From an uncultured Vicinamibacterales bacterium (GTDB lineage Bacteria > Acidobacteriota > Vicinamibacteria > Vicinamibacterales > JAKQTR01): 64,000 nt of DNA. The position numbers were made by a program, and so were the translations under genes. Numbering within the stretch: position 1 is the stretch's first letter; every line of letters begins with the position of its first letter. The DNA lies in the NCBI GenBank assembly GCA_964481395.1, contig CAYZYG010000009.1, positions 959 through 64,958 of the forward strand. Direction: 5' to 3'. Of the stretch, positions 3-60,690 are shown piece after piece. The notes under the pieces were generated by a model. That model had not been told where the DNA came from, made no database searches, and saw nothing but the letters and a program-made list of their open reading frames with translations.

Positions 3-221
3 GTGATGACCGTGGCGACGGCGTTCATGGGGCTGCTGCCCATCATGTGGTCCGAGTCGACCGGCGCGGACGTCATGAAGCGAATCGCCGCGCCGATGAT
101 CGGCGGCCTGGCGACCTCGTTCCTGCTCGAGCTGCTGGTGTACCCTGCGGCGTTCAAGCTGTGGAAGATGGGGGAATTCAGAAGACAGAAGACAGAACAC
201 GGAATGAGCGAGCCGTCCTGA
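3..221 (+). CDS. RND heavy-metal efflux pump (CusA/CzcA family), C-terminal fragment; the gene starts upstream of the window
   Basis: Open from the window edge. LPIMWSESTGADVMKRIAAPMIGGLATSFLLELLVYPA resembles the last TM region of CusA/CzcA-type RND transporters. The last ~15 codons are encoded by GAAGACA heptamer repeats. Confidence 0.8.
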   Translation: MMTVATAFMGLLPIMWSESTGADVMKRIAAPMIGGLATSFLLELLVYPAAFKLWKMGEFRRQKTEHGMSEPS

Positions 222-2400: not shown

Positions 2401-2598
2401 CTAGCCCCCGGCGATCATGTGGATGACCTTGACGTCCGCGCCGTCGGGGACCTTGGTCGCTCGGTACTGGTCGCGAGGCACGAACTCGCCGTCGATCCAC
2501 ACCGCGAGCATCCGGAAGATGTAGTTCTTCCGGTCGAGGATGTCCGACACGGTCATCCCGTCCTCGTACTCGAGCGGCTCTTCGTTGACGGTCAGCAT
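2401..2598 (-). CDS. ThiS/MoaD-family sulfur-carrier-like small protein (C-terminal GG)
   Basis: 65 aa ending ...VIHMIAGG, with a beta-grasp-like sequence pattern. Immediately upstream in the same orientation as the AOR gene. Confidence 0.8.
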   Translation of the reverse strand: MLTVNEEPLEYEDGMTVSDILDRKNYIFRMLAVWIDGEFVPRDQYRATKVPDGADVKVIHMIAGG

Positions 2599-2608
2599 GC
2601 TCTTCGAT

Positions 2609-2720
2609 GAACAGAAGACAGAATACAGAAGACAGGAGACAGAAGGAAAGGAATCGGCCTGATCGGCCGACTGTTGCTATTCTGTCCCCTGGCTTCTGTC
2701 TACTGTCTCCTGTCTCCTGA
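2609..2720. repeat. Composite palindromic element: AGACAGA-type heptamer arm, central hairpin TCGGCC-TGATC-GGCCGA, complementary TGTCTCC-type heptamer arm
   Basis: Left arm 2611-2645, central hairpin 2654-2670, right arm 2680-2719. The right arm is the approximate reverse complement of the left arm. Confidence 0.8.
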
Positions 2721-2728
2721 CGGAGTCC

Positions 2729-4936
2729 TTACTTCCAATACGGCCTCGCCAGCTCCACCACGTCCGGGAAGTCGATCCTGAACTTCTTCAGCGTGGCCTC
2801 CGTCGGCACCCCGTCCGTCGTCCAGCCTCGGCGCTTGTACACCGCATCCACGAGCTTGTTGTAGCGGTCCATCCGCCACTCGCGGTGCAGCCTCACTTTC
2901 TCCTCGGTCGTTTTGCCGGCCGGATCGATCCCGACGATGTCCTTGAGCTGCTTGTCGTAGCGCTCGGATCGTGACTCGTACTCTTCATTGGTGACCGGTC
3001 CGACCGCCCTGTACGGCGGGATGTCGAACTCGCGCCCGCCCTGGCCCATGCGCAGGTTGAACATCCGCTGGAAGTTGTAGACCGCTTCCGACTGCTCGAT
3101 CAGGCTCTGGCGGTCGAGCGGCTTCCCGGTAATACCCGTGTACAGCTCGAGGTAGTTGTTGACGTGCGCCGGAACCTTGGCGGCCTCAGGCCCGGGGTAC
3201 ATCTTCGCGTTGTCCGGGGGCTCGATGTCGTTCCACGGCAGCTTGCACAGCCCCTGCAGGCTGAACCACGTTCGGAACAGGGGGAAGTAGTGCAAGGCCT
3301 CGGCCTTGTCCTCGAAGGTGGGGATCTGGTTGTTCACCATGTCCATGAAGATGAGCCACGCCTCATCGTGCTGGGGGCCCTTGTTGGCCAGCGCGTATCC
3401 GCCCTGCTGCGCCAGCGACTCCTTGGACATGTACTGGGAGATCTCGAGGCCCTTGATCTGCATTCCGATGTCGCGGATCAGCTGCGGATCTCCCCATCCC
3501 TTCTCGATGAAGAGGTTCTGCATGTAGCGGACGCCCTTGCCCACGATCACGCCGAAGCCCTCGCCACGGGCCATGTCGTGGAGGAGCTGCACCTCGGACT
3601 CGCCGTTGCCCCAGCCGAGGTCGAGGCCCCCCGTGCGCTCCTTGTTCAGGATGCCCCGGTCGTAGCACTCCATCACGAACGCGCAGGCCGTGCCGTACGA
3701 GATCGTGTCGATGCCGTAGGTGTCGCAGTAGAAGTTCACCTCGAGCAGCCAGTCGGGATCGAACAGCCCGCAGTTGGACCCCAGGCCGGCCGCGTTCTCG
3801 TACTCGGGCCCGTCCACCGTGACGATGTGGCCCTTGTACGGCCCCGTGCGCACGACATGACCGTCCGCGCCCTTCGAGCAGGCCATGCCGCACCCGTACC
3901 AGCACCGGTCCGGCACCGCCTGTGTGAACCGTTTGTCCCACACCTGCGAGTCGATCTTCGGCGTGTCCGGGTGCTTGCCGTACTGGAAGTTGTAGACCGG
4001 CAGCAGGTCGTACGCGTCCATGATCTCGACGAGGTGCGCCGTGCCCTGCCGGCGCATGTGGTTCTGCTCGTCGTCGAAGTCGTGGATTTCCTTGTTGATG
4101 ATCCGCCCGACCTTGATGACCTGCTGGATGTCCGCCGCGTTGTTCAGGTCCGGCCCCATCTTGAAGCCATGGACGACGAGCGCCTTCAGCTTCTTGTCGC
4201 GGAACACCGTGCCCGTGCCGCCGCGGCCGGCCTGCTTCAGGCGGACGGCCCCGCGCTTCGGGTCGTACCAGGAGAAGTTCAGGCAGCCCATGTAGGCCGA
4301 CTCGGCGGCCTTGCCCGCTGACACGACCGCCACGTTCTGCATGTCCTTCGGATTGTCCGCGTACATGTGCGTGAAGATCTCGGCGGCGATGTGACTGTCG
4401 GGCGTCTCCTCGGGCGCCTCCTCGATGGTGATCGTGCCCTTCGGGCCGTCGATGACCACGATGACGTCGGTCTTCGCCTTGCCCCGGATCTCGACGGCAT
4501 CGAAGCCGACGAACTTGACGAGGGGCCCGAAATACCCGCCCACGTTGCAGTCGATGGGAATGCTCGTCATCGGCGACAGCGACACGACGATCGACTTGCC
4601 CGAGCCTGCGTACTGCGTGTTGCCCGCCAGGGGCCCCGGACTGATGATGATCTCGTTTTCGGGGTCGTTCCACTTCGTCTGCGGGGTGATGGCGTGCCAG
4701 AGATAGTAGAGGCCGAAGCCGCGGCCGCCGGTGAAGACGTCGATCATCTCGTCGGTGATGGCCTTCTCGCTGATCGCCATCGTGTCGAGATCGATGAAGA
4801 GGGTCCGCCGGGTGTAGCCCCGGACCGGCTGGCTCGGCGTGAACGGCACCTCGACGAGCACCTTGTGCGCGGCTTTCATCGCCGGCACGTCGTCGGCGTA
4901 GTTGGTTCGGACCTTGTAATCGTAGGTTACGGACAT
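2729..4936 (-). CDS. aor: Aldehyde:ferredoxin oxidoreductase family (tungsten/molybdopterin AOR), long form of 735 aa
   Basis: N-terminal GYTRRTLFIDLD...FTGGRGFGLYYLW and an overall AOR-family pattern across the full-length ORF. Confidence 0.9.
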   Translation of the reverse strand: MSVTYDYKVRTNYADDVPAMKAAHKVLVEVPFTPSQPVRGYTRRTLFIDLDTMAISEKAITDEMIDVFTGGRGFGLYYLWHAITPQTKWNDPENEIIISPGPLAGNTQYAGSGKSIVVSLSPMTSIPIDCNVGGYFGPLVKFVGFDAVEIRGKAKTDVIVVIDGPKGTITIEEAPEETPDSHIAAEIFTHMYADNPKDMQNVAVVSAGKAAESAYMGCLNFSWYDPKRGAVRLKQAGRGGTGTVFRDKKLKALVVHGFKMGPDLNNAADIQQVIKVGRIINKEIHDFDDEQNHMRRQGTAHLVEIMDAYDLLPVYNFQYGKHPDTPKIDSQVWDKRFTQAVPDRCWYGCGMACSKGADGHVVRTGPYKGHIVTVDGPEYENAAGLGSNCGLFDPDWLLEVNFYCDTYGIDTISYGTACAFVMECYDRGILNKERTGGLDLGWGNGESEVQLLHDMARGEGFGVIVGKGVRYMQNLFIEKGWGDPQLIRDIGMQIKGLEISQYMSKESLAQQGGYALANKGPQHDEAWLIFMDMVNNQIPTFEDKAEALHYFPLFRTWFSLQGLCKLPWNDIEPPDNAKMYPGPEAAKVPAHVNNYLELYTGITGKPLDRQSLIEQSEAVYNFQRMFNLRMGQGGREFDIPPYRAVGPVTNEEYESRSERYDKQLKDIVGIDPAGKTTEEKVRLHREWRMDRYNKLVDAVYKRRGWTTDGVPTEATLKKFRIDFPDVVELARPYWK

Positions 4937-5223: not shown

Positions 5224-5406
5224 ATGAGCGCTGTGAAGAACGAGGAGTTGTTGACGGCTGGTGCCATCGCCAAGGCTGTTGGTGCGTCCGACGCCAAGGT
5301 GAAGAAGGCCATCAAGGACCTGGCCATCCAGCCCAAGGCCAAGAAGGGCGTGTGCGCCTACTACGGGGCGGATGCGGTTGCCAAGGTGAAGAAGGCGCTG
5401 GGGTAG
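5224..5406 (+). CDS. Small Lys/Ala-rich protein (60 aa), possibly DNA-binding
   Basis: Strong RBS GAAGGAGGG 6 nt upstream of the ATG. GC3-rich codons. Internal repeat G-A-x-D-A-K-V-K-K-A occurs twice. Confidence 0.65.
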   Translation: MSAVKNEELLTAGAIAKAVGASDAKVKKAIKDLAIQPKAKKGVCAYYGADAVAKVKKALG

Positions 5407-5411
5407 GGGGA

Positions 5412-5472
5412 GAAGACAGAAGACGCGTGGGGAAAGAGTAGATAGTAGATAGTAGACAGTAGACAGTAGACA
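5412..5472. repeat. Heptamer tandem repeats (GAAGACA x2, then GTAGATA/GTAGACA x5)
   Basis: Units read directly: 5412-5425 and 5438-5472. Located between convergent gene ends. Confidence 0.9.
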
Positions 5473-5506
5473 GGCGGAGCATCGCTGCCGCCGAGGCCAT
5501 CGATCC

Positions 5507-7210
5507 CTACGGCGTCCGGCAGAGCCCGGCGAGGGCGGGGCCGAGCTTCGGGTGGGCGTCGAACTGCGTCACGTAATCCGACTCGCGGCGACCGCCCTTT
5601 GCCAGGATGACGGCCCGGAGCGCGGCCCGCTCCGCGTCGGTCCACCCGCCCACGGGGAGCAACGCCACGAGCGGCGCCCACCGTTCCCAGAACAGACGCT
5701 GGCCCGGGCGAAGCCGCCGCCAGGCCGGGAGACCGAGCGCCGCCCCGGCCTCATCGGCGAGCGTCTCTGTGGCCCGCTCACGGTCGGATCCGAATCGCGC
5801 CGCCACCATCCCGGTGACTCGCAGCGCCACGGCATCCGTCTCGAGCGCGCCGAGCACGTCGCCTCTGTCGGCGCCGAGGCTGAAGAACACGTTGGCTGCG
5901 ACGAGCCGCCGGAGCACCGGCAGACCGGTGCGATAGCCGGGACGGCTGCGGACGCGCTCCGCCTCGCGCCGGGCGAGCGTCGACGCGCGCCGATCGCGCG
6001 GCCTGAACCCGAGCTTGTAGTAGAACCACCACGCGCCCGACTGCAGCCCCTCGTCGTTGTGGTGACCGAGTTGGTACGGGTCGACGGTGATCGTGTCCAC
6101 GCCGAACATCGCATGCACCGCAGCCAGCAGGCGCCCGTAGATCCACGCCGCTTCGGCGCCGCGGAAGCTCTCGAAGACGTTGTACGCAACTTCGGCGGAG
6201 CGCCAGAGCGCGCCGAACAGGGCGTAGCCGATCGGCACGCCGTTGCGCAGCGTCAGGAAGCCGTAGACGGCGTCGAGCAGCAGCCGCTGTTCGACCTGCA
6301 CGCCCATGCAGGCGAACTCGAGCCCGTTCCCGCAGTCGATCAGGCGGACGTCCTCGGGGTCGGCCGCCGCAAAGCAGTAGAGATCGCGGGCCCGAGTGAC
6401 CATGGCCTCCCGCGAGAGGTCGATGAGTTCGACGGCCCGCCGCCCGGTGACCGGACGGATGCGGCGCGGCGGCACTCGCATGTCGACTCTCAGGTCGGGA
6501 CGCGCCGAGCGCAGCGGGCCGGGCTGCGCGACGACCGGGTGGCCGGCGACGCGCGCACGCGTCCGGTCAGGCGAGAGCGGCCCTGCCTTCACGCGCAACG
6601 TCAGGTTCAGCTCGTCGTACAGCTGGTCGCCAAGGAGGTCGTGGCCGGTCACGGCCGCGCTTCGTCGCACGAGGAAGGCGGCATCGGTCTCGCCGCCGCA
6701 CAGCCGGTCCAGCCACGCGCGGCCCAGCAGCGGGGGCTCGTCGAACACCGCCCGCTCGGACCAGAGCGTCAGCAGCGGAAGACGCGTGTCGAGAGCGGCC
6801 TCGTTCTCCCCGCTGTCCCATTCGACCGTCAGCGCATCGCCGGTACGCGCCGCCAGCCACCGCGCGGTGGACGCGGCAAACGGATAGACCGTATCCGTAC
6901 CGGCGATGCCGCTGTTCTCCAGGGCTGCCTGGTGGCGTCGAAGGTCCGTCCGGCGGTCGAAGACCATCAGCATCACCCGCACGGTCTCGAAGACGCGCGC
7001 GTCGTCCGGATAAGCGTAAAGAAACACCAGCGTTTCGTGCAGGAGGACGACCTGATCCACCCGAGACAGGGTGGATCGTCGCAGCAGGCGAAGCAGGCTG
7101 AGCTTCCGTCGTGCCGCGTCCCCGACGAACTCGGTCTTCAGCGCGGCCAGGGCGGTCAACGCCCGGCCGGGGCTTTGCCGTCGCGGAGAACGGGATGTTG
7201 AAGGGCTCAT
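5507..7210 (-). CDS. Conserved-looking hypothetical protein (567 aa); the C-terminal half is possibly acyltransferase (GNAT)-like
   Basis: Long ORF with an ATG start and normal amino-acid composition. The segment GYALFGALWRSAEVAYNVFESFRG...YKLGFRP weakly recalls a GNAT fold. No firm family assignment is possible by eye. Confidence 0.6.
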   Translation of the reverse strand: MSPSTSRSPRRQSPGRALTALAALKTEFVGDAARRKLSLLRLLRRSTLSRVDQVVLLHETLVFLYAYPDDARVFETVRVMLMVFDRRTDLRRHQAALENSGIAGTDTVYPFAASTARWLAARTGDALTVEWDSGENEAALDTRLPLLTLWSERAVFDEPPLLGRAWLDRLCGGETDAAFLVRRSAAVTGHDLLGDQLYDELNLTLRVKAGPLSPDRTRARVAGHPVVAQPGPLRSARPDLRVDMRVPPRRIRPVTGRRAVELIDLSREAMVTRARDLYCFAAADPEDVRLIDCGNGLEFACMGVQVEQRLLLDAVYGFLTLRNGVPIGYALFGALWRSAEVAYNVFESFRGAEAAWIYGRLLAAVHAMFGVDTITVDPYQLGHHNDEGLQSGAWWFYYKLGFRPRDRRASTLARREAERVRSRPGYRTGLPVLRRLVAANVFFSLGADRGDVLGALETDAVALRVTGMVAARFGSDRERATETLADEAGAALGLPAWRRLRPGQRLFWERWAPLVALLPVGGWTDAERAALRAVILAKGGRRESDYVTQFDAHPKLGPALAGLCRTP

Positions 7211-9385: not shown

Positions 9386-9490
9386 GAAGACAGTAGCCTT
9401 GAGAACGGCTACTCCAGCCCTGAACCGGCGGGCACCTTCGAGGCGTTCCAGCGGCACCAGCAGAGCATTAACAACGGCCTGTCGTTCTAC

Positions 9491-10480
9491 ATGCGCCGGA
9501 AGAAAGCGGCCGACGACGTGGCGGTGAAGGCGCAACTGGCGCAACTGGCCGGCGTGCCGCCTGACGAGATCGTGATCACCCGTAACACCACCGAGTCGCT
9601 GGGCACGGTGACCCACGGCATCGACCTCGCGCCGGGGGACGAGGCGGTGATGTGCAACCAGGACTACGGTTCGATGCTGGAGCAGTTCCGCCAGCAGTCG
9701 AAGCGCCGCGGGCTCAAGTGCGTCGAGATCGCCATTCCGCTGCACCTAAAGGACGACCAGGAAATGGTCGACACCTACGCGGCGGCGATGACGCCGCGCA
9801 CGAAGCTGCTGCTCGTGTCCCACATGGTGAACATCACCGGGCAGATCCTGCCCGTGCGCAAGATCGCCGACATGGCCCACGCGCGGGGCGTTTCGGTGAT
9901 CGTGGACGCGGCGCACTCGTTCGCCCACCTGAACTTCACGATTCCCGAGCTGGACGGCGACTTCTTCGGCGCGAGTCTGCACAAGTGGCTGTGTACGCCG
10001 CTCGGCGCCGGCATCCTGCACATCAAGAAGGATCGGATCAAGGACGTGTGGCCGCTCCTTGGCGACACCTCTCGGCCCGCAGACGACATCCGCAAGTTCG
10101 AGCGTCTCGGCACGCAGCCCGTGTGGACGATGCTGGCCGTTGCCGACGCGATCCGCTTCCACACGATGATTGGCGCGGCGCGCAAGGAAGCGCGGCTGCG
10201 TTACCTGCAGCAGTACTGGACCGACAAGGTGCGCGGGTTCCCGAAGGTCTACCTGAACACGCCGACCGGCAACCGCGCGTGCGGCATCGCGAACGTAGGC
10301 GTCACGGGGATGACGCCGAAGGAGCTGGCGGACACGCTCTTCGACCGGTTCAACATCTACACCGTGGCCATCGACACGGTGGCCGTCAAAGGGACGCGCG
10401 TCACGCCGCACCTCTATACGACGACGGCCGAACTCGACGCGCTCGTGAAGGCGCTTCAGGAACTCGCCCGCCGGGCCTGA
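9491..10480 (+). CDS. Class V aminotransferase-fold PLP enzyme (cysteine desulfurase / isopenicillin-N epimerase-like), apparently 5'-truncated
   Basis: Motifs ITRNTTESL, SHMVNITGQILP and ASLHKWL (PLP lysine). In-frame homologous-looking codons (LENGYSSPEP...FYMR) extend upstream to the TAG at 9383-9385 with no ATG/GTG/TTG start. Confidence 0.7.
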   Translation: MRRKKAADDVAVKAQLAQLAGVPPDEIVITRNTTESLGTVTHGIDLAPGDEAVMCNQDYGSMLEQFRQQSKRRGLKCVEIAIPLHLKDDQEMVDTYAAAMTPRTKLLLVSHMVNITGQILPVRKIADMAHARGVSVIVDAAHSFAHLNFTIPELDGDFFGASLHKWLCTPLGAGILHIKKDRIKDVWPLLGDTSRPADDIRKFERLGTQPVWTMLAVADAIRFHTMIGAARKEARLRYLQQYWTDKVRGFPKVYLNTPTGNRACGIANVGVTGMTPKELADTLFDRFNIYTVAIDTVAVKGTRVTPHLYTTTAELDALVKALQELARRA

Positions 10481-10631
10481 AGTCGCGCGGCGGGCCCGTC
10501 CGGCGCCACCCGCCCGGGCGTGGAGATGCTCAGTTCAGGAGCGGTCCGCATACCCGTCGCGCTTCAGGATCTCGGCCGTCGGGCCTGAGAGCTCGCTGCG
10601 TCGCTTCCGGCCCGTGAGGGCTGACAAGGAG

Positions 10632-10660: not shown

Positions 10661-10695
10661 CTGACTCCTGACTCCTGACTCCTGAATTCTGTCCT
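10661..10695. repeat. Heptamer tandem repeat (CTGACTC x3 plus degenerate units)
   Basis: CTGACTC CTGACTC CTGACTC CTGAATT CTGTCCT, ending 3 nt before the stop codon of the minus-strand protease gene. Confidence 0.9.
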
Positions 10696-13941: not shown

Positions 13942-14482
13942 CGTTCGCTCGCTGGATGATCACGGACCGTAGACGCGGTGTCACACCCACGCGGGTCCTG
14001 TCGCCGGACAGCCCACCGGTGCTCAGACCCACAACCATGACCACGGCTGGGGGTCTTCCGCCCCGGCGGGCGCCCATCCGGCGCCACCCGCGCGGGCTGC
14101 GCGAACCGCTCCAGATTGTAGACAGTAGACAGTCGGAAGCGCGAACGCAAGTGGACGCGTCCGCGCAGGTCGTGCCGTGGTGCAACCCCGTGGTGCGACC
14201 CCCGGTCTTGTCCCGACTTGAACGTCGGTTCCCGAATGCCGATCCGTACTTGGGGCAAGCGGCCCCTATCGTGCTGCTTGCCAACAGCAGATTTCGTGCG
14301 ACTCGTCCAGTGAGTCTGCACACTGTTTGCGCCGCGGAGAATCCTCCGTGCAATGTGCGCCGGAGGTCTTGACCGCCTGATGCCGGACGTGGAGGATGTT
14401 CATGCCGCGTATGTGCTGGCGTGGGGCGGTGCCCACTCTGGCCTGTTTTCGCCCGAAGTCGTGGCGCCGAACCGGTGAGCCC

Positions 14483-23932: not shown

Positions 23933-24008
23933 CCCGGCTCGTGTCCGCTTCTCCGTGCCTGCCTGGCATCGCCGAGGGCTGGAAGCCTCGAGCGCCGACC
24001 TGGAGAAC

Positions 24009-24074
24009 GTCATTCCGGGAGCGCGAAGCGAAGCCCGGAATCCAGCTCTGGATTCCCGCTTCCGCGGGAATGAC
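24009..24074. repeat. MITE-like imperfect inverted-repeat element (GTCATTCC...GGGAATGAC), copy 1
   Basis: Termini GTCATTCCGGGAG / CGCGGGAATGAC are inverted. Translating it gives the WIPxSAGMT-type pseudo-peptide. A second copy is at 60215-60312. Confidence 0.75.
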
Positions 24075-24104
24075 GTGGGGTGGCGCCAGGGGACATCCAC
24101 AGCC

Positions 24105-24167
24105 GATCTCCGGTCCCCGGTCCCCGATCCCCGGTCCCCGATCCCTGTTCTCCGACTCCCGGTTCCC
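24105..24167. repeat. Heptamer tandem repeat, C-rich class (GGTCCCC/GATCCCC, about 9 units)
   Basis: GATCTCC GGTCCCC GGTCCCC GATCCCC GGTCCCC GATCCCT GTTCTCC GACTCCC GGTTCCC, read directly. Confidence 0.9.
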
Positions 24168-24182
24168 GACCTGTCCGTTTCC

Positions 24183-24875
24183 CTATCCCTGCCCGTAGTA
24201 CGCTGCCGGACCGTGTTTGCGCTCGAAGTGTTTCCGGAGCAGTACCTGGTCTATCGGGGCGGCCTGCGGATTGGCAGCGAGCGTTTCGGTCGCGAGCCTG
24301 GCGATGTACTCGGTGGCGATGGCGCGGTCGACGGCTTCGTCCGGCGTGGCTCCCCAGCAGACCGGACCATGGTTGGAGACGAGTACGGCGGGGAATTCTG
24401 ACGGATCCACCCCGTTGAAGCGTTCCACAATGACCAGGCCGGTGTTCAGCTCGTACTCGTGCTCGATCTCCGCCGGGGTCATCGGGCGAGTGCACGGAAC
24501 GGGACCGTTGAAGTAGTCGGCGTGCGTCGTGCCGAACACCGGGATCTCGCGACGCGCCTGCGCCCAGGCGGTGGCGTACAGGCTGTGCGTGTGGACGATG
24601 CCTCCAACGCCGGGAAATGCCCGGTAGAGAGCCAGGTGCGTGGGCGTATCCGAGCTGGGACGAAGCGTCCCGCCGACGACGTCGCCCCCCTCGAGTGAGA
24701 CGACGACCATCTGCCCCGCCGTCATGATGTCGTACGCGACGCCAGACGGCTTGATGACGACGAGGCCGCGCTCGCGGTCGATGCCGCTGACGTTGCCGAA
24801 CGTTCCCGTGACGAGTCCGGCTCGCACGACCTGTTGATTGGCGGCGAGCACCTGCTGCTTCAGGCTTTCCAGCAT
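24183..24875 (-). CDS. araD: L-ribulose-5-phosphate 4-epimerase
   Basis: GNVSGIDRERGLVVIKPSGV, SSDTPTHLALY and IVHTHS match class II aldolase/AraD. Confidence 0.9.
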   Translation of the reverse strand: MLESLKQQVLAANQQVVRAGLVTGTFGNVSGIDRERGLVVIKPSGVAYDIMTAGQMVVVSLEGGDVVGGTLRPSSDTPTHLALYRAFPGVGGIVHTHSLYATAWAQARREIPVFGTTHADYFNGPVPCTRPMTPAEIEHEYELNTGLVIVERFNGVDPSEFPAVLVSNHGPVCWGATPDEAVDRAIATEYIARLATETLAANPQAAPIDQVLLRKHFERKHGPAAYYGQG

Positions 24876-26644: not shown

Positions 26645-26711
26645 GACAGCGTCCCTCGGTCCCGGGTTCGGGGGGCGGGGATTGGCTCAACCGATCCCCG
26701 GTCCCCGGTCC

Positions 26712-28121
26712 CTACACGTGTCTGTACACTTCCCACCCGAGGTACGTCTCGAGCGCGTCCTCGATGGCTTCTGCCACGGTTTCCCGTGTCGCGGCCACGT
26801 GGTGTTCGAACCCCATGCGGCAGATGTACTGCAACAGGTCCTGGAAGCGCGGGATCTCGACGACCCCGTAGCCGCCGAACGTGTCGAGCGCATCGTCCGT
26901 GAAGCGCCCTTCGCCGACGTACGCCGCGATCGCGCCCCTGATCTCGTCCGTGGAGACGCGGCAGTAGGTGAACGGCCCGGGCGCGACCCGGCCGACAATC
27001 GTGCCGTACGTGTTCTCGCGGCCGACGGTGCCCGCGATGATCTCCTGGTAGTCCATCCGCTGCTCCGCAAAGAAAGCCCTCGGCAGGTTGGAGCAGTGGA
27101 AGACGACGGCCTTGTCGGGATCGTCGGCGTAGTTGTTGTTCCAGTCGAGGAGGGCGGCGGGCTTCTGCGAGGCCGCCTGCAGCACGTACATGCCGACGAC
27201 ACCGGCCACGTCCGTCTCGCAGCCACTGGGCAGGAGCGAGTCGGACATCATGCTCATCAGCGTGCACGGAACGATGCCGTAGAACTCCTCGAGCGCCGTC
27301 CAGCACTGGATGGCCGTGGCCGAGAGGTGCTTGTCCCGCACCCAGCGATCGATGGCGACGCCCAGTTTCGCCATCTTCATCAGGCTCAGCGTCGGGATTC
27401 CCTTTACGGATGTGTAGCCCATGACGGCGTCGAGCTTGGCCCTGACCTCCGGCTCCGCGTCCGGCATCTTCGCGATCCACCCGAGCGCCTCGGACAGGTC
27501 GAGGGTCTCGATGCTGATGCCCGACCGCTCGAGCAGTTTCTCGCTGTAGCGGACCGTGTTGAAAGCGGCCGGCCTGGCGCCAAGAGCGCCGATCCTCGCG
27601 TGCCTGAGGGCGCGGACCACGCGGCACGTCGCGCCGAAGCGGCGGAGGTCGTCTCGGAAGGACGCTGATGCCGGGTCGACGGTGTGCAGCGACGTCAGGG
27701 AGTAGCGGATGCCGTACTGCCGGAGGTTGTTGCAGACCGACATCTTGCCGCAGAAGGCATCGCGCCGGTGTGTGATGGTCATCCGGTCGCCCGCGTCGCT
27801 GAACGCGTGGATGAGGACCGGCACGTCGAGTTCGGCCCAGCGGAGGGTGTTGGCCACCGCCCGCTCGTCGCCGAAGTTCGGGAGCGTGACCAGCACGCCG
27901 TCGATCTCGTCTCGGTGGGCGCGCAACAGGTCCGCGCACGCCCGGGCCTCCTCGAGGCTCTCGACGGCGCCGTGGCGCGTTGCGTCCGGAGCCAGAGCAA
28001 CCGACTGGAACCCTTCGGCTGCCAGGGCTTCAAGAACGGCCTGGCGGCCTGTTTCACACAGATGCGCCGGGAAAAACCCTCGGTTGCCGACGACGAGGGC
28101 GAGGGTGGTGGGCGTAGGCAT
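26712..28121 (-). CDS. L-fucose/L-arabinose isomerase-family protein (about 470-aa type)
   Basis: N-terminal LALVVGNRGFFP...VTLPNFGDE pattern. Positioned upstream of araB-araD in the same orientation. Confidence 0.8.
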   Translation of the reverse strand: MPTPTTLALVVGNRGFFPAHLCETGRQAVLEALAAEGFQSVALAPDATRHGAVESLEEARACADLLRAHRDEIDGVLVTLPNFGDERAVANTLRWAELDVPVLIHAFSDAGDRMTITHRRDAFCGKMSVCNNLRQYGIRYSLTSLHTVDPASASFRDDLRRFGATCRVVRALRHARIGALGARPAAFNTVRYSEKLLERSGISIETLDLSEALGWIAKMPDAEPEVRAKLDAVMGYTSVKGIPTLSLMKMAKLGVAIDRWVRDKHLSATAIQCWTALEEFYGIVPCTLMSMMSDSLLPSGCETDVAGVVGMYVLQAASQKPAALLDWNNNYADDPDKAVVFHCSNLPRAFFAEQRMDYQEIIAGTVGRENTYGTIVGRVAPGPFTYCRVSTDEIRGAIAAYVGEGRFTDDALDTFGGYGVVEIPRFQDLLQYICRMGFEHHVAATRETVAEAIEDALETYLGWEVYRHV

Positions 28122-28374
28122 GCAACAGTTCTCCGTCAGGCAGGCGAGGGGCGGCCGACGCGGAGAACGTTATCACGGTCCGGGGGATGACCGGTACACG
28201 AAGACCGGGCCTCGAGATCCGGGAGCCGGGATCCGGGATGCGGTCCTGCACGGCACAGACGCCTGGAACGGGCGCCGACAGGGCCGGTGGTACACGCCTC
28301 GACCGAGGGTCACAGACGAGCCATGCCGCGGCCTGCGGGCCCGCCTGTAGAATGATGGTCTCTGAGGAGCAGTC

Positions 28375-32515: not shown

Positions 32516-32759
32516 GTCGGGTCTCCTGCGCCCTGTCGATCTGCATGACGCGGCGCCGGGGCAGCCGCCCCTGGCGCGCGCCGCTGTGTTGTGCTGTCGT
32601 GAGGCCGAACGGTCACAGTATACCCGGACCGACCTGGTGCTCCCGCTGGAACCGTTGCGAACCGGGCGCCGCGCTCCGGAACTTCGACAACGAACCACTG
32701 ATACGGGCCACCGGTGGACGTGTTACACTAGTCAGAAGACTAGTCAGAAGGAGACTGTC

Positions 32760-33017
32760 ATGCCCGCGTGGCCGGTTCAGGATGCGAAGGCGAGATTCAG
32801 TGAACTGCTCGAGACCTGCCTGGCCGAAGGGCCTCAGGTGGTGACGAAGCGGGGAGCCGAGGCGGCCGTTCTGGTGCCGGTCGAGCAGTGGCGCCGGCTC
32901 GAAACGTCGGCGCGCCCGACCCTGAAGTCGCTGCTGCTGTCCGATCGCGGTCGCACGCGCCTGACGATTCCGAAGCGGGGCAGCGCCAGGCGCCGCGGGT
33001 CGGCGACGCTGGAGTGA
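32760..33017 (+). CDS. Type II antitoxin (Phd/YefM-like), partner of the downstream PIN toxin
   Basis: WPVQDAKARFSELLE...PQVVTKRGAEAAVLVPVEQW pattern. 85 aa. Ends 5 nt before the toxin start. Confidence 0.85.
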   Translation: MPAWPVQDAKARFSELLETCLAEGPQVVTKRGAEAAVLVPVEQWRRLETSARPTLKSLLLSDRGRTRLTIPKRGSARRRGSATLE

Positions 33018-33022
33018 CCTGC

Positions 33023-33436
33023 ATGTTCCTGCTCGACACCAACGTCGTCTCGGAATTGCGCAAACCGCGGCCTCATGGCGCCGTTCTGGCCTGGCTGGAA
33101 GGGGTGGAGGACCGGCGTCTGTTCGTGTCGGCCGTCACGCTCGCCGAGATTCAGGCGGGCATCGAACTGACCCGTCAGCAGGACACGATCAAGGCCGCCG
33201 AGATCGAGTCATGGCTGGATCAGGTCGCGGAGTCATGGAACGTCCTGCCGATGGACGTCGCGGCATTCCGGCTGTGGGCGAGGCTGATGCACGGCAGGCC
33301 GGACGCCCTCTACGAAGATGCGATGATCGCGGCCACCGCCCGCGTGCATCACCTCACGGTGGTCACACGCAACGTCCAGGACTTCGCACCGTTTGACGTG
33401 TCGGTGCTGAACCCGTTCAGGACGGCGAGGCGCTGA
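33023..33436 (+). CDS. vapC: PIN-domain ribonuclease toxin VapC
   Basis: MFLLDTNVVSE...AMIAATA...VVTRNVQDF carries the PIN acidic residues. Confidence 0.9.
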   Translation: MFLLDTNVVSELRKPRPHGAVLAWLEGVEDRRLFVSAVTLAEIQAGIELTRQQDTIKAAEIESWLDQVAESWNVLPMDVAAFRLWARLMHGRPDALYEDAMIAATARVHHLTVVTRNVQDFAPFDVSVLNPFRTARR

Positions 33437-36195: not shown

Positions 36196-36364
36196 GTGTG
36201 GCTGTTGTACTCCGAAACGACAGCGGCGCGACAGTCGGGACCCGACTTCGCCGCGCACGCGGACGCGGCTTCGTCGAGGCAGGCCCGGGACCCGGATCCC
36301 GGGACCCGATCGCCGTCAGTTCCTTTGTGCCATACTCCGCGAGTCAATCGACGGAGACCGACAC

Positions 36365-39672: not shown

Positions 39673-41436
39673 ATGACGACGATCGACTGGGTAGTCATCT
39701 TCGCGTACTTCGCCGGGCTGGCCGCTCTGACGTGGTGGGCCATCCGCAAGAACCGCGACACCGCCGACGACTACTTCCTGGCCGGCCGGAACCTCGGCTG
39801 GTGGGTGGTCGGGGCGTCGATTTTCGCGTCGAACATCGGCTCCGAGCACCTCGTCGGTCTGGCCGGTTCAGGGGCCACCAGCGGTGTGGCGCTGGCGCAC
39901 TACGAATTGCACGCTTGGTGCCTGCTCGTGCTCGGCTGGGTGCTCGTGCCTTTCTACATCCGCTCGCGCGTCTACACGATGCCCGAGTTCCTGGAGCGGC
40001 GGTTTTCGCCGACCGCGCGCTGGGTCCTCTCGCTCATCTCGCTCGTCGCCTACGTCCTGACCAAGCTGGCCGTCGGGATCTTCGCGGGCGGCATCGTGTT
40101 CGGGACGCTGCTCCCGGAGTTGACCGTCCACATCGGCAGCTTCACGCTCAACAGCTTCTGGGTCGGTTCTGTGCTCGTCGTCCTGCTGACGGGGCTTTAC
40201 ACCGTTCTCGGCGGCATGCGCGCCGTCGCCTACACGGAGGCCGTACAGACGGCGGTCCTCGTCGTCGGGTCGCTGATGCTCACGGTCTTCGGGCTGTCGA
40301 AGCTCGGCGGGTGGGGTGAGCTGCGTGCGGCGCTCGACCCGGACATGTTCAACCTGTGGAAGCCGCTCATTCCCGCCGGCGTCGAGGGCACGTGGGCGCC
40401 CGTCAAGGAAGCGGGCCGCATGGCGTGGTACTTCAACACGAACTACCCGTGGCTGGGCATGCTGTTCTGCGCGCCGATCATCGGCCTCTGGTACTGGTGC
40501 ACGGACCAGTACATCGTTCAGCGCGCGCTCGGAGCGCCGAGCGAGCAGGAGGCGCGGCGCGGCAGCATCTTCGCGTCGTTCCTGAAGCTGCTTCCGGTTT
40601 TCATCTTCATCATCCCCGGCATGATCGCCCTGGCGCTCGCGAAGACCGGTCGAGCCACGGGCCTCGAAACCATCATCGACGCCGGCGGCAACGTCGTGAC
40701 GTCATCGGCGCAGGCTGCTTTTCCGCTGATGGTGCAGGCGGTGATGCCCGCCGGACTGCGCGGCATCGTCGTGGCGGGCCTTCTTGCCGCGCTCATGAGT
40801 TCGCTGGCGGGGACGTTCAACGCCTGCTCGACGCTCTTCACGATGGACTTCTACCAGCAGCACCGGCCCAAAGCCACCCAGCACCAGCTCGTGTGGGTCG
40901 GACGCCTCGCGACGACGGTCATGGTGCTGATCGGGCTCGCGTGGATTCCCGTCATCCAGGGGGCGAAGGGGCTCTACGAGTACCTGCAGGGCGTTCAGGG
41001 ATACCTCGCCCCGCCGATTTTCGCCGTCTTCTTCTTCGGCGTGTTCTTCAAGCGGCTCAACGCGAAGGGATGTCTGACCGCGCTCATCGTCGGCTTCGTC
41101 CTGGGGATCTTCCGACTGGCCGTGGACACCCCGATCAGCCTGGCCCTCAGCGGCTACGAGCATGGCTATGCCGTCGGCTCGTTCCTCTGGGTCGTCAACA
41201 ACATCTACTTTCAGTACTACAGTCTGTTCATTTTTGTCGTGTCGACGCTGGCGATGTTCGCGGTGAGCTACGCGACCGAGGTGCCGGACGAATCGAAACT
41301 GACGGGCCTGACCTACGCGACGGTGACCGCCGAGCACCGCGCGGAGTCGCGGCGAAGCTGGGGCCGGGGGGACGTCATCAGTTCGGGGGTCGTGCTGCTG
41401 CTGATTCTCGCGGCGTATCTGTATTTCAACGGGTAG
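39673..41436 (+). CDS. Sodium:solute symporter (SSS/SGLT family)
   Basis: DYFLAGRNLGWWVVGASIFASNIGSEHLVGLAG and about 14 TM segments. Confidence 0.9.
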   Translation: MTTIDWVVIFAYFAGLAALTWWAIRKNRDTADDYFLAGRNLGWWVVGASIFASNIGSEHLVGLAGSGATSGVALAHYELHAWCLLVLGWVLVPFYIRSRVYTMPEFLERRFSPTARWVLSLISLVAYVLTKLAVGIFAGGIVFGTLLPELTVHIGSFTLNSFWVGSVLVVLLTGLYTVLGGMRAVAYTEAVQTAVLVVGSLMLTVFGLSKLGGWGELRAALDPDMFNLWKPLIPAGVEGTWAPVKEAGRMAWYFNTNYPWLGMLFCAPIIGLWYWCTDQYIVQRALGAPSEQEARRGSIFASFLKLLPVFIFIIPGMIALALAKTGRATGLETIIDAGGNVVTSSAQAAFPLMVQAVMPAGLRGIVVAGLLAALMSSLAGTFNACSTLFTMDFYQQHRPKATQHQLVWVGRLATTVMVLIGLAWIPVIQGAKGLYEYLQGVQGYLAPPIFAVFFFGVFFKRLNAKGCLTALIVGFVLGIFRLAVDTPISLALSGYEHGYAVGSFLWVVNNIYFQYYSLFIFVVSTLAMFAVSYATEVPDESKLTGLTYATVTAEHRAESRRSWGRGDVISSGVVLLLILAAYLYFNG

Positions 41437-41443
41437 GACAACA

Positions 41444-41510
41444 GGGACCGGGGAGCTGGGACCGGGGACCAGTTGTGGAGGTCCCCAGTCCCCATTCGTG
41501 GTCCTCGGGG
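41444..41510. repeat. About 65-bp element: G-rich heptamers, spacer, C-rich heptamers, then CCATTCGTGGTCCTCGG (copy A)
   Basis: GGGACCGGGGAGCTGGGACCGGGGACCAGTTGTGGAGGTCCCCAGTCCCCATTCGTGGTCCTCGGGG. A close relative is at 52411-52476. Confidence 0.85.
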
Positions 41511-41529
41511 TGTCCGGCGGGCTCGGCGA

Positions 41530-41601
41530 GCCCGCCCTACCGTGCCCGATAAGGCCCGCCCTACCGTGCCCGATGCGGCCCGTCCTACCGCCCCCGAGGT
41601 G
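41530..41601. repeat. 24-bp tandem repeat x3 (GCCCGCCCTACCGTGCCCGATNNN)
   Basis: Units 41530-41553, 41554-41577 and 41578-41601 (the third is degenerate). Confidence 0.85.
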
Positions 41602-46678: not shown

Positions 46679-46789
46679 GTTCGCTCCGGTCCTGTGAATC
46701 CCGTCTCGCCCAGCCCTGTGTCCGTGCCGGCACTCGGGGAAGGTTGCTTCGAATCCCGATCCCCGACCCCCGACTCCCGGATTGTGGCC

Positions 46790-49813: not shown

Positions 49814-49841
49814 TCTCCTGACTCCTGACTCCTGACCCCCC
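49814..49841. repeat. Heptamer tandem repeat (TCTCCTG ACTCCTG ACTCCTG ACCCCCC)
   Basis: Read directly. Same CTGACTC class as the array at 10661-10695. Confidence 0.85.
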
Positions 49842-52384: not shown

Positions 52385-52410
52385 AGGACGGGGCAGATTC
52401 CCACACGGTC

Positions 52411-52476
52411 GGGACCCGGGACCCGGGGCCGGGGATCAGCTGTTGAGTCCCGAGTTCCCATTCGTGGTCCTCGGTG
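52411..52476. repeat. About 65-bp heptamer-arm element, copy B
   Basis: GGGACCCGGGACCCGGGGCCGGGGATCAGCTGTTGAGTCCCGAGTTCCCATTCGTGGTCCTCGGTG. Begins 27 nt after a plus-strand stop codon. Confidence 0.85.
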
Positions 52477-58706: not shown

Positions 58707-58780
58707 GCTTGACCGCCGGTTCGCGAGGACACTCGGTCTCGAGTGTTGACGGCCGCGTAGTAAGACGATATCTTACCTTC

Positions 58781-59032
58781 ATGACCACCGTGATCTCCAG
58801 CAAGGGCCAGATCGTGCTCCCCGCCGAGATCCGAAGGCAGGACGACATCCGCCCGGGGGAGGAGTTCAAGGTCGAGCGCCTCGATCCCGGAGAGTACCGT
58901 CTGACGCGTCTGACTCGGAGGAAGAACGCCGGCCTCGTGGATGTGCTCCTGTCGTGTCCGGCAGAGGGCGGGCTCAGTCCGATCGACCGGACGGAGACGA
59001 CCGACGACATCCATCTCCCGGGCGTGGCCTGA
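58781..59032 (+). CDS. AbrB/MazE/SpoVT-type antitoxin (VapB-like)
   Basis: TVISSKGQIVLPAEIRR is the SpoVT/AbrB swapped-hairpin motif. The stop overlaps the toxin ATG. Confidence 0.85.
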   Translation: MTTVISSKGQIVLPAEIRRQDDIRPGEEFKVERLDPGEYRLTRLTRRKNAGLVDVLLSCPAEGGLSPIDRTETTDDIHLPGVA

Positions 59033-59460: not shown

Positions 59461-59530
59461 TTCCGGCCGAAGACCGAAATCATCCACCGAAATCAGTCCG
59501 GGAGTGTCCGGGAGTGATTGCGCGAACCGC

Positions 59531-60586
59531 ATGCCTGTTGCCATCACCCGTGGCGTGAGCGCGTCGCTGGCCTCGTGCGAGCTGACGCACCTGGCGCGGG
59601 CGCCGATTGACCTGAACCTGGCTTGCGCCCAGCACGCGGCGTACGAGGCGGCGCTCGAGCGCGCGGGCTGCCGGGTCGTCTGCCTGCCGCCGCTGGACGA
59701 CTGTCCGGATGCGGTGTTCGTCGAGGACGTCGCGGTGGTGCTCGACGAGATCGCCATCGTCACGAGGCCTGGTGCGGAGTCCAGGCGGGGCGAGGTCGAA
59801 TCCGTTGCGCGGGCGCTCGGGGGCTACCGCAGCGTCAGGCGCATCGAGCCGCCGGGCACGCTCGACGGCGGGGACGTGCTGAGGCTCGGCCGGCGAATCT
59901 ACGTCGGCTTGTCCGGGCGCAGCAACCAGAGCGGGATCGAGCAACTCGGGGCGATGCTGGCCCCGCACGGCTACGAGGTCACGGCCGTGCCCGTGACCGG
60001 CTGCCTGCACCTGAAGTCGGCGGTGACGGAAGTTGCCCTGGGCGTGATCCTCGTCAATCCCGAGTGGGTGAACGCGGCTACGTTCGTCGATGTGGAGGTG
60101 ATCGAGGTCGATCCCGCCGAGCCTTACGCGGCGAACGGGCTGTTCATCGCCTCGCCGCCGGCTGCGCCCGCGCCCGCCGAGCCACCAGCGTTATCTGCGA
60201 ACCTCCCCCGGGTCGTCATTCCGGGGCCGGATCCCTCGGCCTGTCCGTTGGGGGCCGAGGGGCGGGCGGCACCAGGAATCCGGCCCTGGATTCCCACTTC
60301 CGCGGGAATGACGCCAGGAACTCCCAGGGCCTGTCCCAGCGCGTCCTGGCCCACGCGCTGGGACGAGGCAGCACCGAGTCCCGAATCCCGATTCCCGACT
60401 CCCGACGAGAGTCACCTCTGCGTCCGTCTCCCGCCGTCCCACTCGACGCTCATCTACCCCGCATCGTTTCCCCGCACGCGCGCCCGGCTGGAAGCTCACG
60501 GCATTCGACTTGAGATCGTCGACGTCTCGGAGCTGCAGAAGGCCGAAGGCGCGGTGACCTGCTGCAGCCTGGTGTTTCGCGACTAA
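59531..60586 (+). CDS. Dimethylarginine dimethylaminohydrolase (DDAH/amidinotransferase fold) carrying an in-frame insertion of about 99 codons derived from repeat elements
   Basis: VFVEDVAVV, TRPGAESRRGE, LDGGDV, CLHLKS (His) and GAVTCCSL (Cys) align with DDAH. The segment 60149-60445 has no DDAH counterpart and contains the MITE-like and heptamer repeats. Confidence 0.75.
   Translation: MPVAITRGVSASLASCELTHLARAPIDLNLACAQHAAYEAALERAGCRVVCLPPLDDCPDAVFVEDVAVVLDEIAIVTRPGAESRRGEVESVARALGGYRSVRRIEPPGTLDGGDVLRLGRRIYVGLSGRSNQSGIEQLGAMLAPHGYEVTAVPVTGCLHLKSAVTEVALGVILVNPEWVNAATFVDVEVIEVDPAEPYAANGLFIASPPAAPAPAEPPALSANLPRVVIPGPDPSACPLGAEGRAAPGIRPWIPTSAGMTPGTPRACPSASWPTRWDEAAPSPESRFPTPDESHLCVRLPPSHSTLIYPASFPRTRARLEAHGIRLEIVDVSELQKAEGAVTCCSLVFRD
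60215..60312. repeat. MITE-like inverted-repeat element, copy 2, located inside the DDAH reading frame
   Basis: GTCATTCCGGGG...CTGGATTCCCACTTCCGCGGGAATGAC. Same termini and right arm as copy 1 at 24009-24074. Followed at 60378-60405 by GTCCCGA ATCCCGA TTCCCGA CTCCCGA. Confidence 0.8.
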
Positions 60587-60630: not shown

Positions 60631-60690
60631 CCGTTCGTCCCGTCCGTTCGTCCCGTTCGTCCCGTTCGTCCCGTTCGTCCCGTCCGTCCG
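60631..60690. repeat. 9-bp tandem repeat (CCGTTCGTC, about 6 units with CCGTCCGT variants)
   Basis: CCGTTCGTC CCGTCCGTTCGTC CCGTTCGTC CCGTTCGTC CCGTTCGTC CCGTCCGTCC. Confidence 0.85.

Follow-up and report, generated by a model that had tools for sequence, protein, structure and literature searches.

The 64,000-nt stretch of an uncultured Vicinamibacterales bacterium analyzed here (GenBank assembly GCA_964481395.1, contig CAYZYG010000009.1, positions 959 to 64,958 of the forward strand; hereafter the window) carries 15 arrays of tandem heptanucleotides, including a nine-unit array at 24105-24167 downstream of an aldolase gene. The arrays are real, non-random period-7 repeats lying nearly all in the non-coding part of the window (roughly 8-9%), and their period and location persist, whereas unit sequence and presence change fast. 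We consider it probable, at roughly three in four, that they are heptanucleotide simple sequence repeats (SSRs) generated by slippage, of the same kind as long SSRs and short tandemly repeated repetitive (STRR)-type repeats. Judged by their units and placement, they belong to a repeat class known from Xanthomonas, Nostoc, Geobacter, and others, and not, as the initial annotation of the window proposed, to an undescribed family; the excess reported by Mrazek et al. in 2007, the GGGNATC repeats (PMC4692102), and the Geobacter units (PMC2700814) were already published. That tandem 7-nt repeats are in excess in many large, high-GC and cyanobacterial genomes was recognized in 2007 and has never been explained. 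Since the repeat class is already described, the advance is modest; new here are a rule placing the purine-rich strand in the sense orientation after stop codons, whole-unit differences between strains, flanks shared between distant copies, and relatives carrying different units. The window thereby adds a lineage in which three unrelated units stand side by side, follow the same strand and stop-codon rule, and show visible slippage at strain level. All results for this genome refer to the 64-kb window.

Period-7 excess and placement at gene ends

Tandem Repeats Finder returned 15 period-7 arrays, all at sites named in the initial annotation, whose coordinates were right to within a few bases. 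It placed them at 179-197, 2611-2645, 2682-2719, 5437-5473, 10661-10685, 14118-14133, 24110-24145, 26691-26712, 28216-28243, 36284-36308, 41444-41470, 46755-46782, 49815-49836, 52410-52435, and 60374-60406. Exact self-match runs numbered nine at lag 7 versus zero to two at each other lag from 1 to 15. When segments with at least 12 of 14 matches were counted, lag 7 gave 13 and other lags 0 to 5, except for its multiple, lag 14 (seven segments); lags 4, 5, 8, 10, and 11 gave 0 or 1 each, and lags that are multiples of 3 were slightly raised, as coding sequence would predict. Third-order Markov simulations of the window (n = 100) yielded a lag-7 mean of 0.71 and a maximum of 5, so that the strict 7-nt period proposed earlier stands at 13 segments observed against 0.71 expected.

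The curated set of 15 arrays comprises three classes of unit, repeated head to tail from about 2 (2.3) to about 9 times per array. Class A units are GAAGACA, GGAGACA, or GTAGACA. The class B unit reads GAGTCAG in the sense direction and, on the opposite strand, CTGACTC or CTCCTGA. Class C units (GGGACCG, GGGGATC, GGGAATC, GGGATTC, and GGGAGTC) consist of a tract of three or four G and a loop of 3 to 4 nt, together 7 nt. On a gene map based on GC content at third codon positions (GC3) and annotated with Pfam, 9.4% of the window is intergenic, and this fraction holds 13 of the 16 period-7 segments called at a looser threshold; of the remaining three, one lies in an N-terminal extension of doubtful status and another in an insertion carried by a gene. 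The presence of several unit families in intergenic DNA was thus correctly recognized from the outset. A 7-nt indel would shift the reading frame, which would keep arrays out of coding sequence. Arrays were also said to occupy nearly every larger intergenic gap; they do sit in gaps, but the extent was overstated, as 8 of the 15 gaps of at least 180 nt, about half, carry one. A CRISPR array was ruled out, the units being contiguous 7-mers without spacers, versus repeats of 24-48 nt with unique spacers, and Rfam and tRNA scans gave no match.

Nine of the 15 arrays have their start -43 to +26 nt from a stop codon, and in each the purine- or G-rich strand is the sense strand of the gene just ended; the preferred position is about the first 40 nt past the stop. 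These genes encode a CusA-like tail, aldehyde:ferredoxin oxidoreductase (AOR), a 60-amino acid (aa) open reading frame (ORF), tricorn protease, aldolase, an isomerase-like protein, a sodium:solute symporter (SSF), a GlnA-like protein, and a hypothetical protein ending at 52384. When arrays were placed and oriented at random in non-coding DNA, a mean of 2.5 fulfilled this description and nine was reached in about 1 of 10,000 trials (P about 1e-4); the reported abutment of arrays on stop codons is therefore correct and stronger than stated. The purine-rich strand is + in seven arrays and - in eight, with no DNA-strand bias, so orientation tracks transcription and not DNA strand. Among class C arrays, five of eight lie -2 to 26 nt from the preceding stop with the G-rich strand in sense, and two of this small set of eight (28216 and 36284) occupy divergent spacers; together with the array at 49815, three arrays are found in 5' or divergent regions.

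A purine-rich sense strand was rejected as a universal rule: arrays of other phyla show a sense-strand purine fraction that exceeds 0.5 weakly if at all, and the bias may be a trait of this lineage and of G-rich units. Two further ideas were assessed by eye. Three-frame stop modules were rejected as a general explanation, GAAGACA, GAGTCAG, and GGGACCG containing no stop codon, although TAG is present in AGTAGAC and in the relatives' units CTAGGGG and TAGAGGC. Shine-Dalgarno-like ribosome traps were not supported, since GGAG, although found in class B and part of class A, is missing from AGTAGAC and AGAAGAC.

Variation between strains and relatives

Exact copies of the aldolase gene (24183-24875) and of the 60-aa ORF were looked up in public assemblies. 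Each lookup gave 10 contigs from independent sequencing runs (L001-L010 and L157-L166, respectively), with flanks about 99% identical to the window, and the occurrence of the arrays in many independent assemblies means that they are not an assembly artefact. The array at 24105 was 14 nt (two units) shorter in four contigs, the array at 26690 was 7 nt shorter in four, and the class A array at 5433 was 7 nt shorter in three. A 3-nt indel, not a whole unit, was found in the array at 28216, and the long palindrome at 2609-2723 was invariant among contigs. Gain and loss of whole units in near-identical strains indicate that replication slippage is active; the view that slippage does not fit these repeats, put forward in the initial annotation, is not supported, given the three arrays that differ by exactly 7 or 14 nt. 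Public short-read assemblies of this organism break within or beside the arrays and the palindromic element described below, with 6 of 10 aldolase contigs and 7 of 10 small-ORF contigs ending within an array. Such breaks, and the ability of arrays to sit in frame within genes, matter for the annotation of metagenome-assembled genomes.

Comparison with relatives, proposed in the same annotation, showed that both copy number and presence vary. Syntenic loci of relatives (about 70% protein identity, GC 68-70%) carry heptamer arrays with other units. In L167 these are GGGACAG; an inverted cluster of about 330 nt in L174 (13067-13398) is made of GGGGCTA and GGGACTA; and 137 nt of L176 (1160-1296) hold about 19 units, GGGACAT/GGGGCTT together with CTAGAGG. 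L178 (105-129), a sister contig at the L176 site, has two to three units only and a different upstream flank. No heptamer array was present in 21 kb of L169 or L175, and of the orthologous GlnA-M16 spacers, that of the window carries an array and that of L174 has none. Different units and absence at orthologous sites point to fast turnover and not to conserved sequence-specific sites. Three units under one rule, visible slippage, and relatives that swapped the unit and kept the period together argue against a sequence-specific reader and for a process tied to transcription units.

For comparison, 80 loci (1.35 Mb) of unrelated genomes were taken from a genome-collection scan with the FGGY kinase that adjoins an array. 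The best matches to this kinase were 76-78% identical and came from Verrucomicrobiota, Ignavibacteria, Acidobacteriota, and others, with no close relative among them. In this control set, period 7 led all periods other than multiples of 3 (40 segments vs. 6-17). Its density was about 0.03 per kb, compared with 0.2 per kb in the window, and some control loci were heptamer-rich. Among clustered proteins, one named homolog, 69% identical, came from a Vicinamibacterales bacterium, and the gene content of the window would suit Acidobacteriota.

Array structure, folding and shared flanks

Table 1. Heptamer arrays and associated repeat elements in the window, by position
Feature	Position	Strand	Context
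Class A, CAGAAGA, ~3 units	179..201	+	Inside last 14 codons of ORF entering at window start
Class A, ACAGAAG, 5 units	2611..2645	+	Far arm of long palindrome between AOR and ThiS-like genes
GC-rich central hairpin AGTCGGCC GATCA GGCCGATT, then pyrimidine-rich tail	2652..2672	-	
Class A, sense GGAGACA/GTAGACA, ~5 units	2682..2719	-	Starts 9 nt past AOR stop (2729); pairs with 2611-2645
Class A, GAGAAGACAGAAGAC then AGTAGAT x2, AGTAGAC x3	5412..5473	+	Starts 5 nt past stop of 60-aa ORF; then hairpin GGCGGAGCATCGCTGCCGCC
Single class A-like unit GAAGACAGTAG	9386..9396	+	Directly after TAG stop of Na/sulfate symporter gene
Class B, sense GAGTCAG x3-4 (+ strand CTGACTC, rotates to CTCCTGA)	10661..10691	-	7 nt past tricorn protease stop (10699)
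Class A, GTAGACA, 2.3 units	14118..14133	+	540-nt tricorn-LysE spacer; no adjacent stop codon identified
REP-like palindromic doublet CGTCATTCCGGG...CCCGGAATCC / GGATTCCCGCTTCCGCGGGAATGACG	24008..24075		Flanks array 24105
Class C, 9 units	24105..24167	-	15 nt past aldolase stop (24183); predicted G4 motif
Class C, TAG|GGACCG GGGACCG GGGATCG	26690..26713	-	Overlaps stop of isomerase-like gene; 5' hairpin arm with ATCCCCGCCCCCC
Class C variant, GGGATCC/GGGAGCC, 4 units	28216..28243	+	Divergent promoter region
Class C variant, + strand CCCGGGA/CCCGGAT	36284..36311	-	85-nt divergent spacer; predicted G4 motif on - strand
Class C, GGGACCG GGGAGCT GGGACCG GGGACCA	41444..41508	+	7 nt past stop of SSF gene
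Class C, sense GGGAGTC GGGGGTC GGGGATC GGGATTC	46751..46782	-	7 nt past GlnA-like stop, inside operon; predicted G4 motif
Class B, + strand CTCCTGA x3	49815..49840	-	5' region of hypothetical gene
Class C, GGGACCC GGGACCC GGGGCC GGGGATC	52411..52474	+	26 nt past stop codon; predicted G4 motif
Class C, sense GGGAGTC GGGAATC GGGATTC GGGACTC	60374..60406	-	Predicted G4 motif; in ~290-nt composite insertion (about 60150-60442), dimethylargininase gene
Related 9-nt array, sense GGGACGAAC, 5 units	60644..60689	-	Between beta-helix gene stop (60697) and hairpin
REP, repetitive extragenic palindromic; G4, G-quadruplex.

On the sense strand, the array at 24105-24167 reads GGGAACC GGGAGTC GGAGAAC AGGGATC GGGGACC GGGGATC GGGGACC GGGGACC GGAGATC, and its + strand accordingly consists of C-rich heptamers (CCGGTCC CCGGTCC CCGATCC ...); Tandem Repeats Finder called 24110-24145 at period 7 and extended the array to 24103-24169 as period 14/21. 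The array at 41444 is followed by a loop and the inverted units GGTCCCC AGTCCCC ATTCGTG GTCCTCG, with a tail that exactly matches 52460-52474, and the array at 52411 is likewise followed by a loop, inverted units, and the tail ATTCGTGGTCCTCGG. At the window start, the ORF that contains the first array resembles by eye the C terminus of a CusA/RND transporter, and the array is followed by GGAAT...CCTGATCGGCCGAC. The class B array at 10661 is followed by the hairpin GCCCGCC-TAATC-GGCGGGC.

The AOR gene and then a 65-aa ThiS/MoaD-like gene ending in GG occupy 2401-4936, with a 128-nt class A palindrome between them. The 60-aa ORF (5224-5406) is lysine/alanine-rich, has a canonical AAGGAGG ribosome-binding site, is identical in 12 contigs, and gave no Pfam match.

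GC-rich hairpins are common 3' of the arrays, as after the tricorn protease gene, the 60-aa ORF, and the AOR gene. A very stable RNA fold was predicted for 2595-2731 on the - strand (ΔG -68.2 kcal/mol, z -7.35), which has a GC hairpin between the inverted class A arrays; folds of 41434-41520 (ΔG -47.9, z -2.85) and 60290-60420 (z -3.07) were strong as well. Arrays without an inverted partner were predicted to be unstructured (e.g., 24060-24185, z +2.4), and a stable palindromic hairpin was absent from the folds of 24060-24185, 5404-5510, and 150-260. In all five post-stop class C arrays, the last units are predicted to pair with a short inverted (G/A)TCCCC located 8-12 nt downstream. Clear inverted arms were seen at 2611/2682, and short inverted units after 26690, 41444, and 52411; the inverted arms that had been described thus exist, in a minority of arrays and not often. 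Hairpins followed by a U-tract, as in intrinsic terminators, were at or below shuffle expectation in a scan of 1-60000 (15 matches), and only one of the 15 coincides with an array element, at 2652-2672 in the center of the class A palindrome.

Canonical G4 motifs (G3+N1-7 x4) were predicted in six of the eight class C arrays, four of which have exactly four tracts; the arrays at 26690 and 28216 have three G-tracts only. Of the nine G4 motifs in the window, six belong to class C arrays and two more to tandem repeats with periods of 9 and 24 downstream of gene ends, again with the G-rich strand in sense. A 24-nt tandem repeat, GCCCGCCCTACCGTGCCCGATAAG, occurs in 2.8 copies at 41530-41597 with a G4 motif on the - strand, about 100 nt past the stop of a DUF5916 gene.

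Several arrays share non-repeat flanks with distant copies, at three to four pairs in 64 kb. The 42-nt core of the REP-like doublet (24034-24075) recurs with 90% identity at 60272-60313, both copies being beside arrays, and its first palindrome has a degenerate copy at 60214-60227. The sequence ATTCGTGGTCCTCGG is found exactly at 41494 and 52460, CCTGATCGGCCGAC exactly at 217 and 2658, and 24089-24124 is 81% identical to 26677-26712. The doublet (24008-24075; 60214-60313) is built on GTCATTCC(C/G)G...C(G/C)GGAATGAC, which seems to resemble the ATTCCC...GGGAAT extragenic palindromes of some proteobacteria. In the dimethylargininase (DDAH) gene at 59504-60586, the REP-like doublet, a hairpin, and a class C array together form an in-frame insertion of about 98 aa, which is lacking from homologs of 254-259 aa. 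Related organisms (P0002 and P0004) have a shorter palindromic insert, CCCCGGACCTTCAGGTCCGGGG, in the same DDAH loop, and P0061 and P0109 have other inserts there; palindromic insertions appear to favor this loop as a hot-spot. The shared flanks and the DDAH insertion suggest that at least some composite elements were copied to new sites.

Terminal inverted repeats and target-site duplications were not identified around these elements, whose ends are not delimited. No transposase or REP-associated tyrosine transposase (RAYT) domain was found among the Pfam matches of the window proteins, several of which had no match. A metagenome scan with the 18-nt shared flank CCCATTCGTGGTCCTCGG gave 66 matches, all of them chance matches in conserved coding sequence and none beside heptamers. 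Separately, a dispersed GC-rich repeat, …CCGGCGCCACCCGC(C/G)CGGGC, occurs at 10473-10519 and 14051-14097 with 74% identity, one copy directly past an aminotransferase stop and the other shortly upstream of the class A array at 14118. Genes of toxin-antitoxin type were noted at 32699-33436 (a PIN-domain gene at 32888-33436, preceded in the matching contigs L001 and L002 by a PhdYeFM antitoxin), and a MazE-like gene at 58709-59032.

The 9-nt array at 60644-60689 offers a view of how such arrays begin. It lies between the stop of the beta-helix/MBG gene and the hairpin ACGGCGGG...CCCGCCGTTCGTC, and its unit is the base of the 5' stem of that hairpin. Three syntenic loci (L167, L169, and L176) have kept the hairpin, all without the 9-nt array. 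Absence where the hairpin is conserved, and a unit equal to the stem base, are direct evidence from comparison for an origin in place by duplication of the 5' side of the hairpin.

Competing explanations and known repeat systems

Taken together, these observations favor slippage-generated SSRs with the following proposed history. In this terminator-poor, high-GC genome, GC-rich hairpins follow genes, and arrays would start in place when the 5' arm or 5' flank of such a hairpin is duplicated in tandem; slippage would then homogenize the units, and a few composite versions would be copied to new sites. The 7-nt period would be set by the slippage process itself, for which the length of DNA held by polymerase is a published idea, and not by a sequence-specific reader. 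Class C arrays (G3-4N3-4, often with exactly four G-tracts) could fold into G4 in the 3' end of the mRNA or in non-template DNA, and inverted pairs would give long hairpins that could stabilize or end transcripts. The orientation bias may reflect RNA-level selection for a 3'-end hairpin or G4 in the transcript, or a mutational asymmetry linked to transcription. A role of the arrays at the 3' ends of transcripts is a reasonable hypothesis; use of these structures by the cell is unproven.

Several points weigh against this account. Independent slippage leaves the recurrence of about three unit families at 15 sites unexplained, a fair objection raised in the initial annotation and partly answered by the shared flanks, which imply some dispersal; nor does it explain why GGGACCG and CTCCTGA units occur in Geobacter too. 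The complete sense-strand bias needs selection or a transcription-linked process to be added. The polymerase-footprint basis of the 7-nt period is a published hypothesis and not a demonstrated mechanism. Classes A and B cannot form G4, so that G4 cannot explain the shared period, and the energies of hairpins between last units and downstream sequence were mostly no better than those of shuffled controls. Finally, the account rests on 64 kb of this genome.

A slippage origin is compatible with function, and one reading adds it: the arrays would be selected RNA-level elements of 3' ends that end transcription, block 3'-to-5' exonucleases, or tune the downstream cistron, with slippage as only the source of variation. 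We regard this as a genuine but minority possibility. It would account for orientation that follows transcription and for arrays that start at or beside stop codons, a rule also found in Xanthomonas and Nostoc, where the repeats are transcribed (PMC4692102), and visible in the Geobacter alignment (PMC2700814). The absence of canonical terminators above chance in the window, the very stable hairpins at 2595-2731 and 41434-41520, and the frequency of four G-tracts point the same way. However, orthologous gene ends in relatives lack arrays, as do about half of the gene ends here; copy number is free to vary, even below four G-tracts; several arrays are predicted to be single-stranded and fold no better, or worse, than shuffles, that at 24060-24185 among them; and Rehm et al. 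(PMC4692102) found no regulatory role for their repeats. Slightly less probable is dispersal of the arrays as mobile or recombining composite palindromes resembling REPs or MITEs (miniature inverted-repeat transposable elements), the unit families being element families. The flanks common to distant copies, namely ATTCGTGGTCCTCGG, CCTGATCGGCCGAC, the 42-nt palindrome, and the 24089/26677 pair, and the in-frame composite within the DDAH gene are what such elements would leave behind. Each flank type has two copies only in 64 kb, however, neither element termini nor a transposase or RAYT gene came to light as described above, metagenome contigs yielded no additional copy to the 18-nt flank probe, the in-place origin of the 9-nt array is clear, and Rehm et al. 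(PMC4692102) reported no link to mobile elements.

Binding sites for a protein with a 7-nt register (a cold-shock-domain protein, a nucleoid-associated protein, or a global regulator) are improbable. Precedents do exist, since five-fold MTYCTGA repeats in Geobacter were annotated as putative global-regulator sites (PMC2700814) and CspB binds heptamer repeats with one protein per heptamer (MacGregor 2015, PMC4679880), and the units of all three classes can be aligned by eye, without statistics, to a loose purine-rich consensus. Yet units differ completely between related species that share period and position, copy number is unconstrained, most arrays stand 3' of genes and not in promoters, and no candidate protein was identified. 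Least probable are phase-variation (contingency) loci acting through promoter spacing or reading frame, an idea already largely refuted by position: copy number is polymorphic and the arrays at 28216, 36284, and 49815 are in 5' or divergent regions, but most arrays are downstream of stop codons, their neighbors are ordinary metabolic genes (aldolase, isomerase, symporter, protease, GlnA-like), and phase variation was dismissed for Xanthomonas and Nostoc (Rehm et al., PMC4692102).

Slippage-generated SSRs thus remain the preferred explanation, and a bolder extension, which we think unlikely, would make heptamer arrays a general, sequence-independent module of bacterial transcript 3' ends and not neutral junk. 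Period and position are kept, the unit turns over, and all families obey the stop-codon rule, which makes such a module possible. The arrays would then be expandable 5' arms of terminator or stabilizer hairpins, taking their 7-nt register from the replisome, RNA polymerase, or the terminating ribosome. If true, this would tie the heptamer excess of Xanthomonas, cyanobacteria, Geobacter, and this lineage to one mechanism.

Among known systems, REPs and bacterial interspersed mosaic elements (BIMEs) are extragenic palindromes that lie between genes, often convergent ones, or in operons and form hairpins in the transcript. The arrays resemble them in being intergenic and in having dispersed copies with common sequence. 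Unlike the arrays, REPs are not tandem heptamers and show no unit slippage; only a minority of the arrays is palindromic, and no RAYT was seen.

The closest general precedent is the class of long SSRs. As summarized in PMC4679880 and PMC4692102, Mrazek et al. 2007 ranked heptanucleotides first in abundance among the long SSRs of many bacterial genomes and proposed a connection between 7 nt and the DNA segment held by polymerase; according to the same two papers, these repeats and STRRs are found mostly in large, high-GC or cyanobacterial genomes of non-pathogens. As in those genomes and in the cyanobacterial STRRs of Calothrix and Anabaena, period 7 is favored here over 5 to 11 nt, arrays are intergenic, and several units coexist in one genome. 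Insofar as those surveys are reported in these papers, they do not mention a purine-rich post-stop sense rule for non-G-rich units or a link to the 5' arms of 3'-end hairpins.

Class C fits the description of Rehm et al. 2015 (PMC4692102) feature by feature. Their repeats, GGGAATC in Xanthomonas and GGGGA(C/T)T in Nostoc PCC 7120, are scattered and non-coding, prefer four units, are under-represented between divergent ORFs, and form G4 in vitro (GGGNATC). Class C likewise has 7-nt G3-4N3-4 units, with GGGGATC and GGGAATC, both literally GGGNATC, among them, and follows the same positional rule; four G-tracts are common, inverted pairs occur, length varies between close relatives, and neighboring genes are metabolic. 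In contrast to those repeats, the dominant unit here is GGGACCG/GGGATCG, the host belongs to an uncultured high-GC lineage, two heptamer families unable to form G4 coexist under the same positional rule, and some copies are embedded in composite palindromic elements, in one case within a gene; G4 formation in the window is predicted from the motif.

The unit GGGACCG is identical to one in Geobacter metallireducens (Aklujkar et al. 2009, PMC2700814), where GGGACCG x4 occurs at 49 sites and MTYCTGA x5, which the class B unit CTCCTGA fits, at 15 sites. Many of the Geobacter elements begin with TAA, TAG, or TGA, convergent pairs occur, and the elements were listed as putative regulatory RNA or binding sites, an annotation made without tests (PMC2700814). 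In Geobacter the number of units is almost constant at four, the flanks are A-rich and conserved, and some copies lie within genes, whereas arrays in the window have 2 to 9 units and are polymorphic. TAACTGA direct repeats of marine Beggiatoaceae, cyanobacteria, and Bacteroidetes (MacGregor 2015, PMC4679880) are likewise intergenic, have two to six or more heptamer copies, are biased in orientation to genes, and share their unit across unrelated phyla. Unlike the arrays described here, they have one dominant unit, are AT-rich, contain stop codons, and lie mostly directly upstream of start codons.

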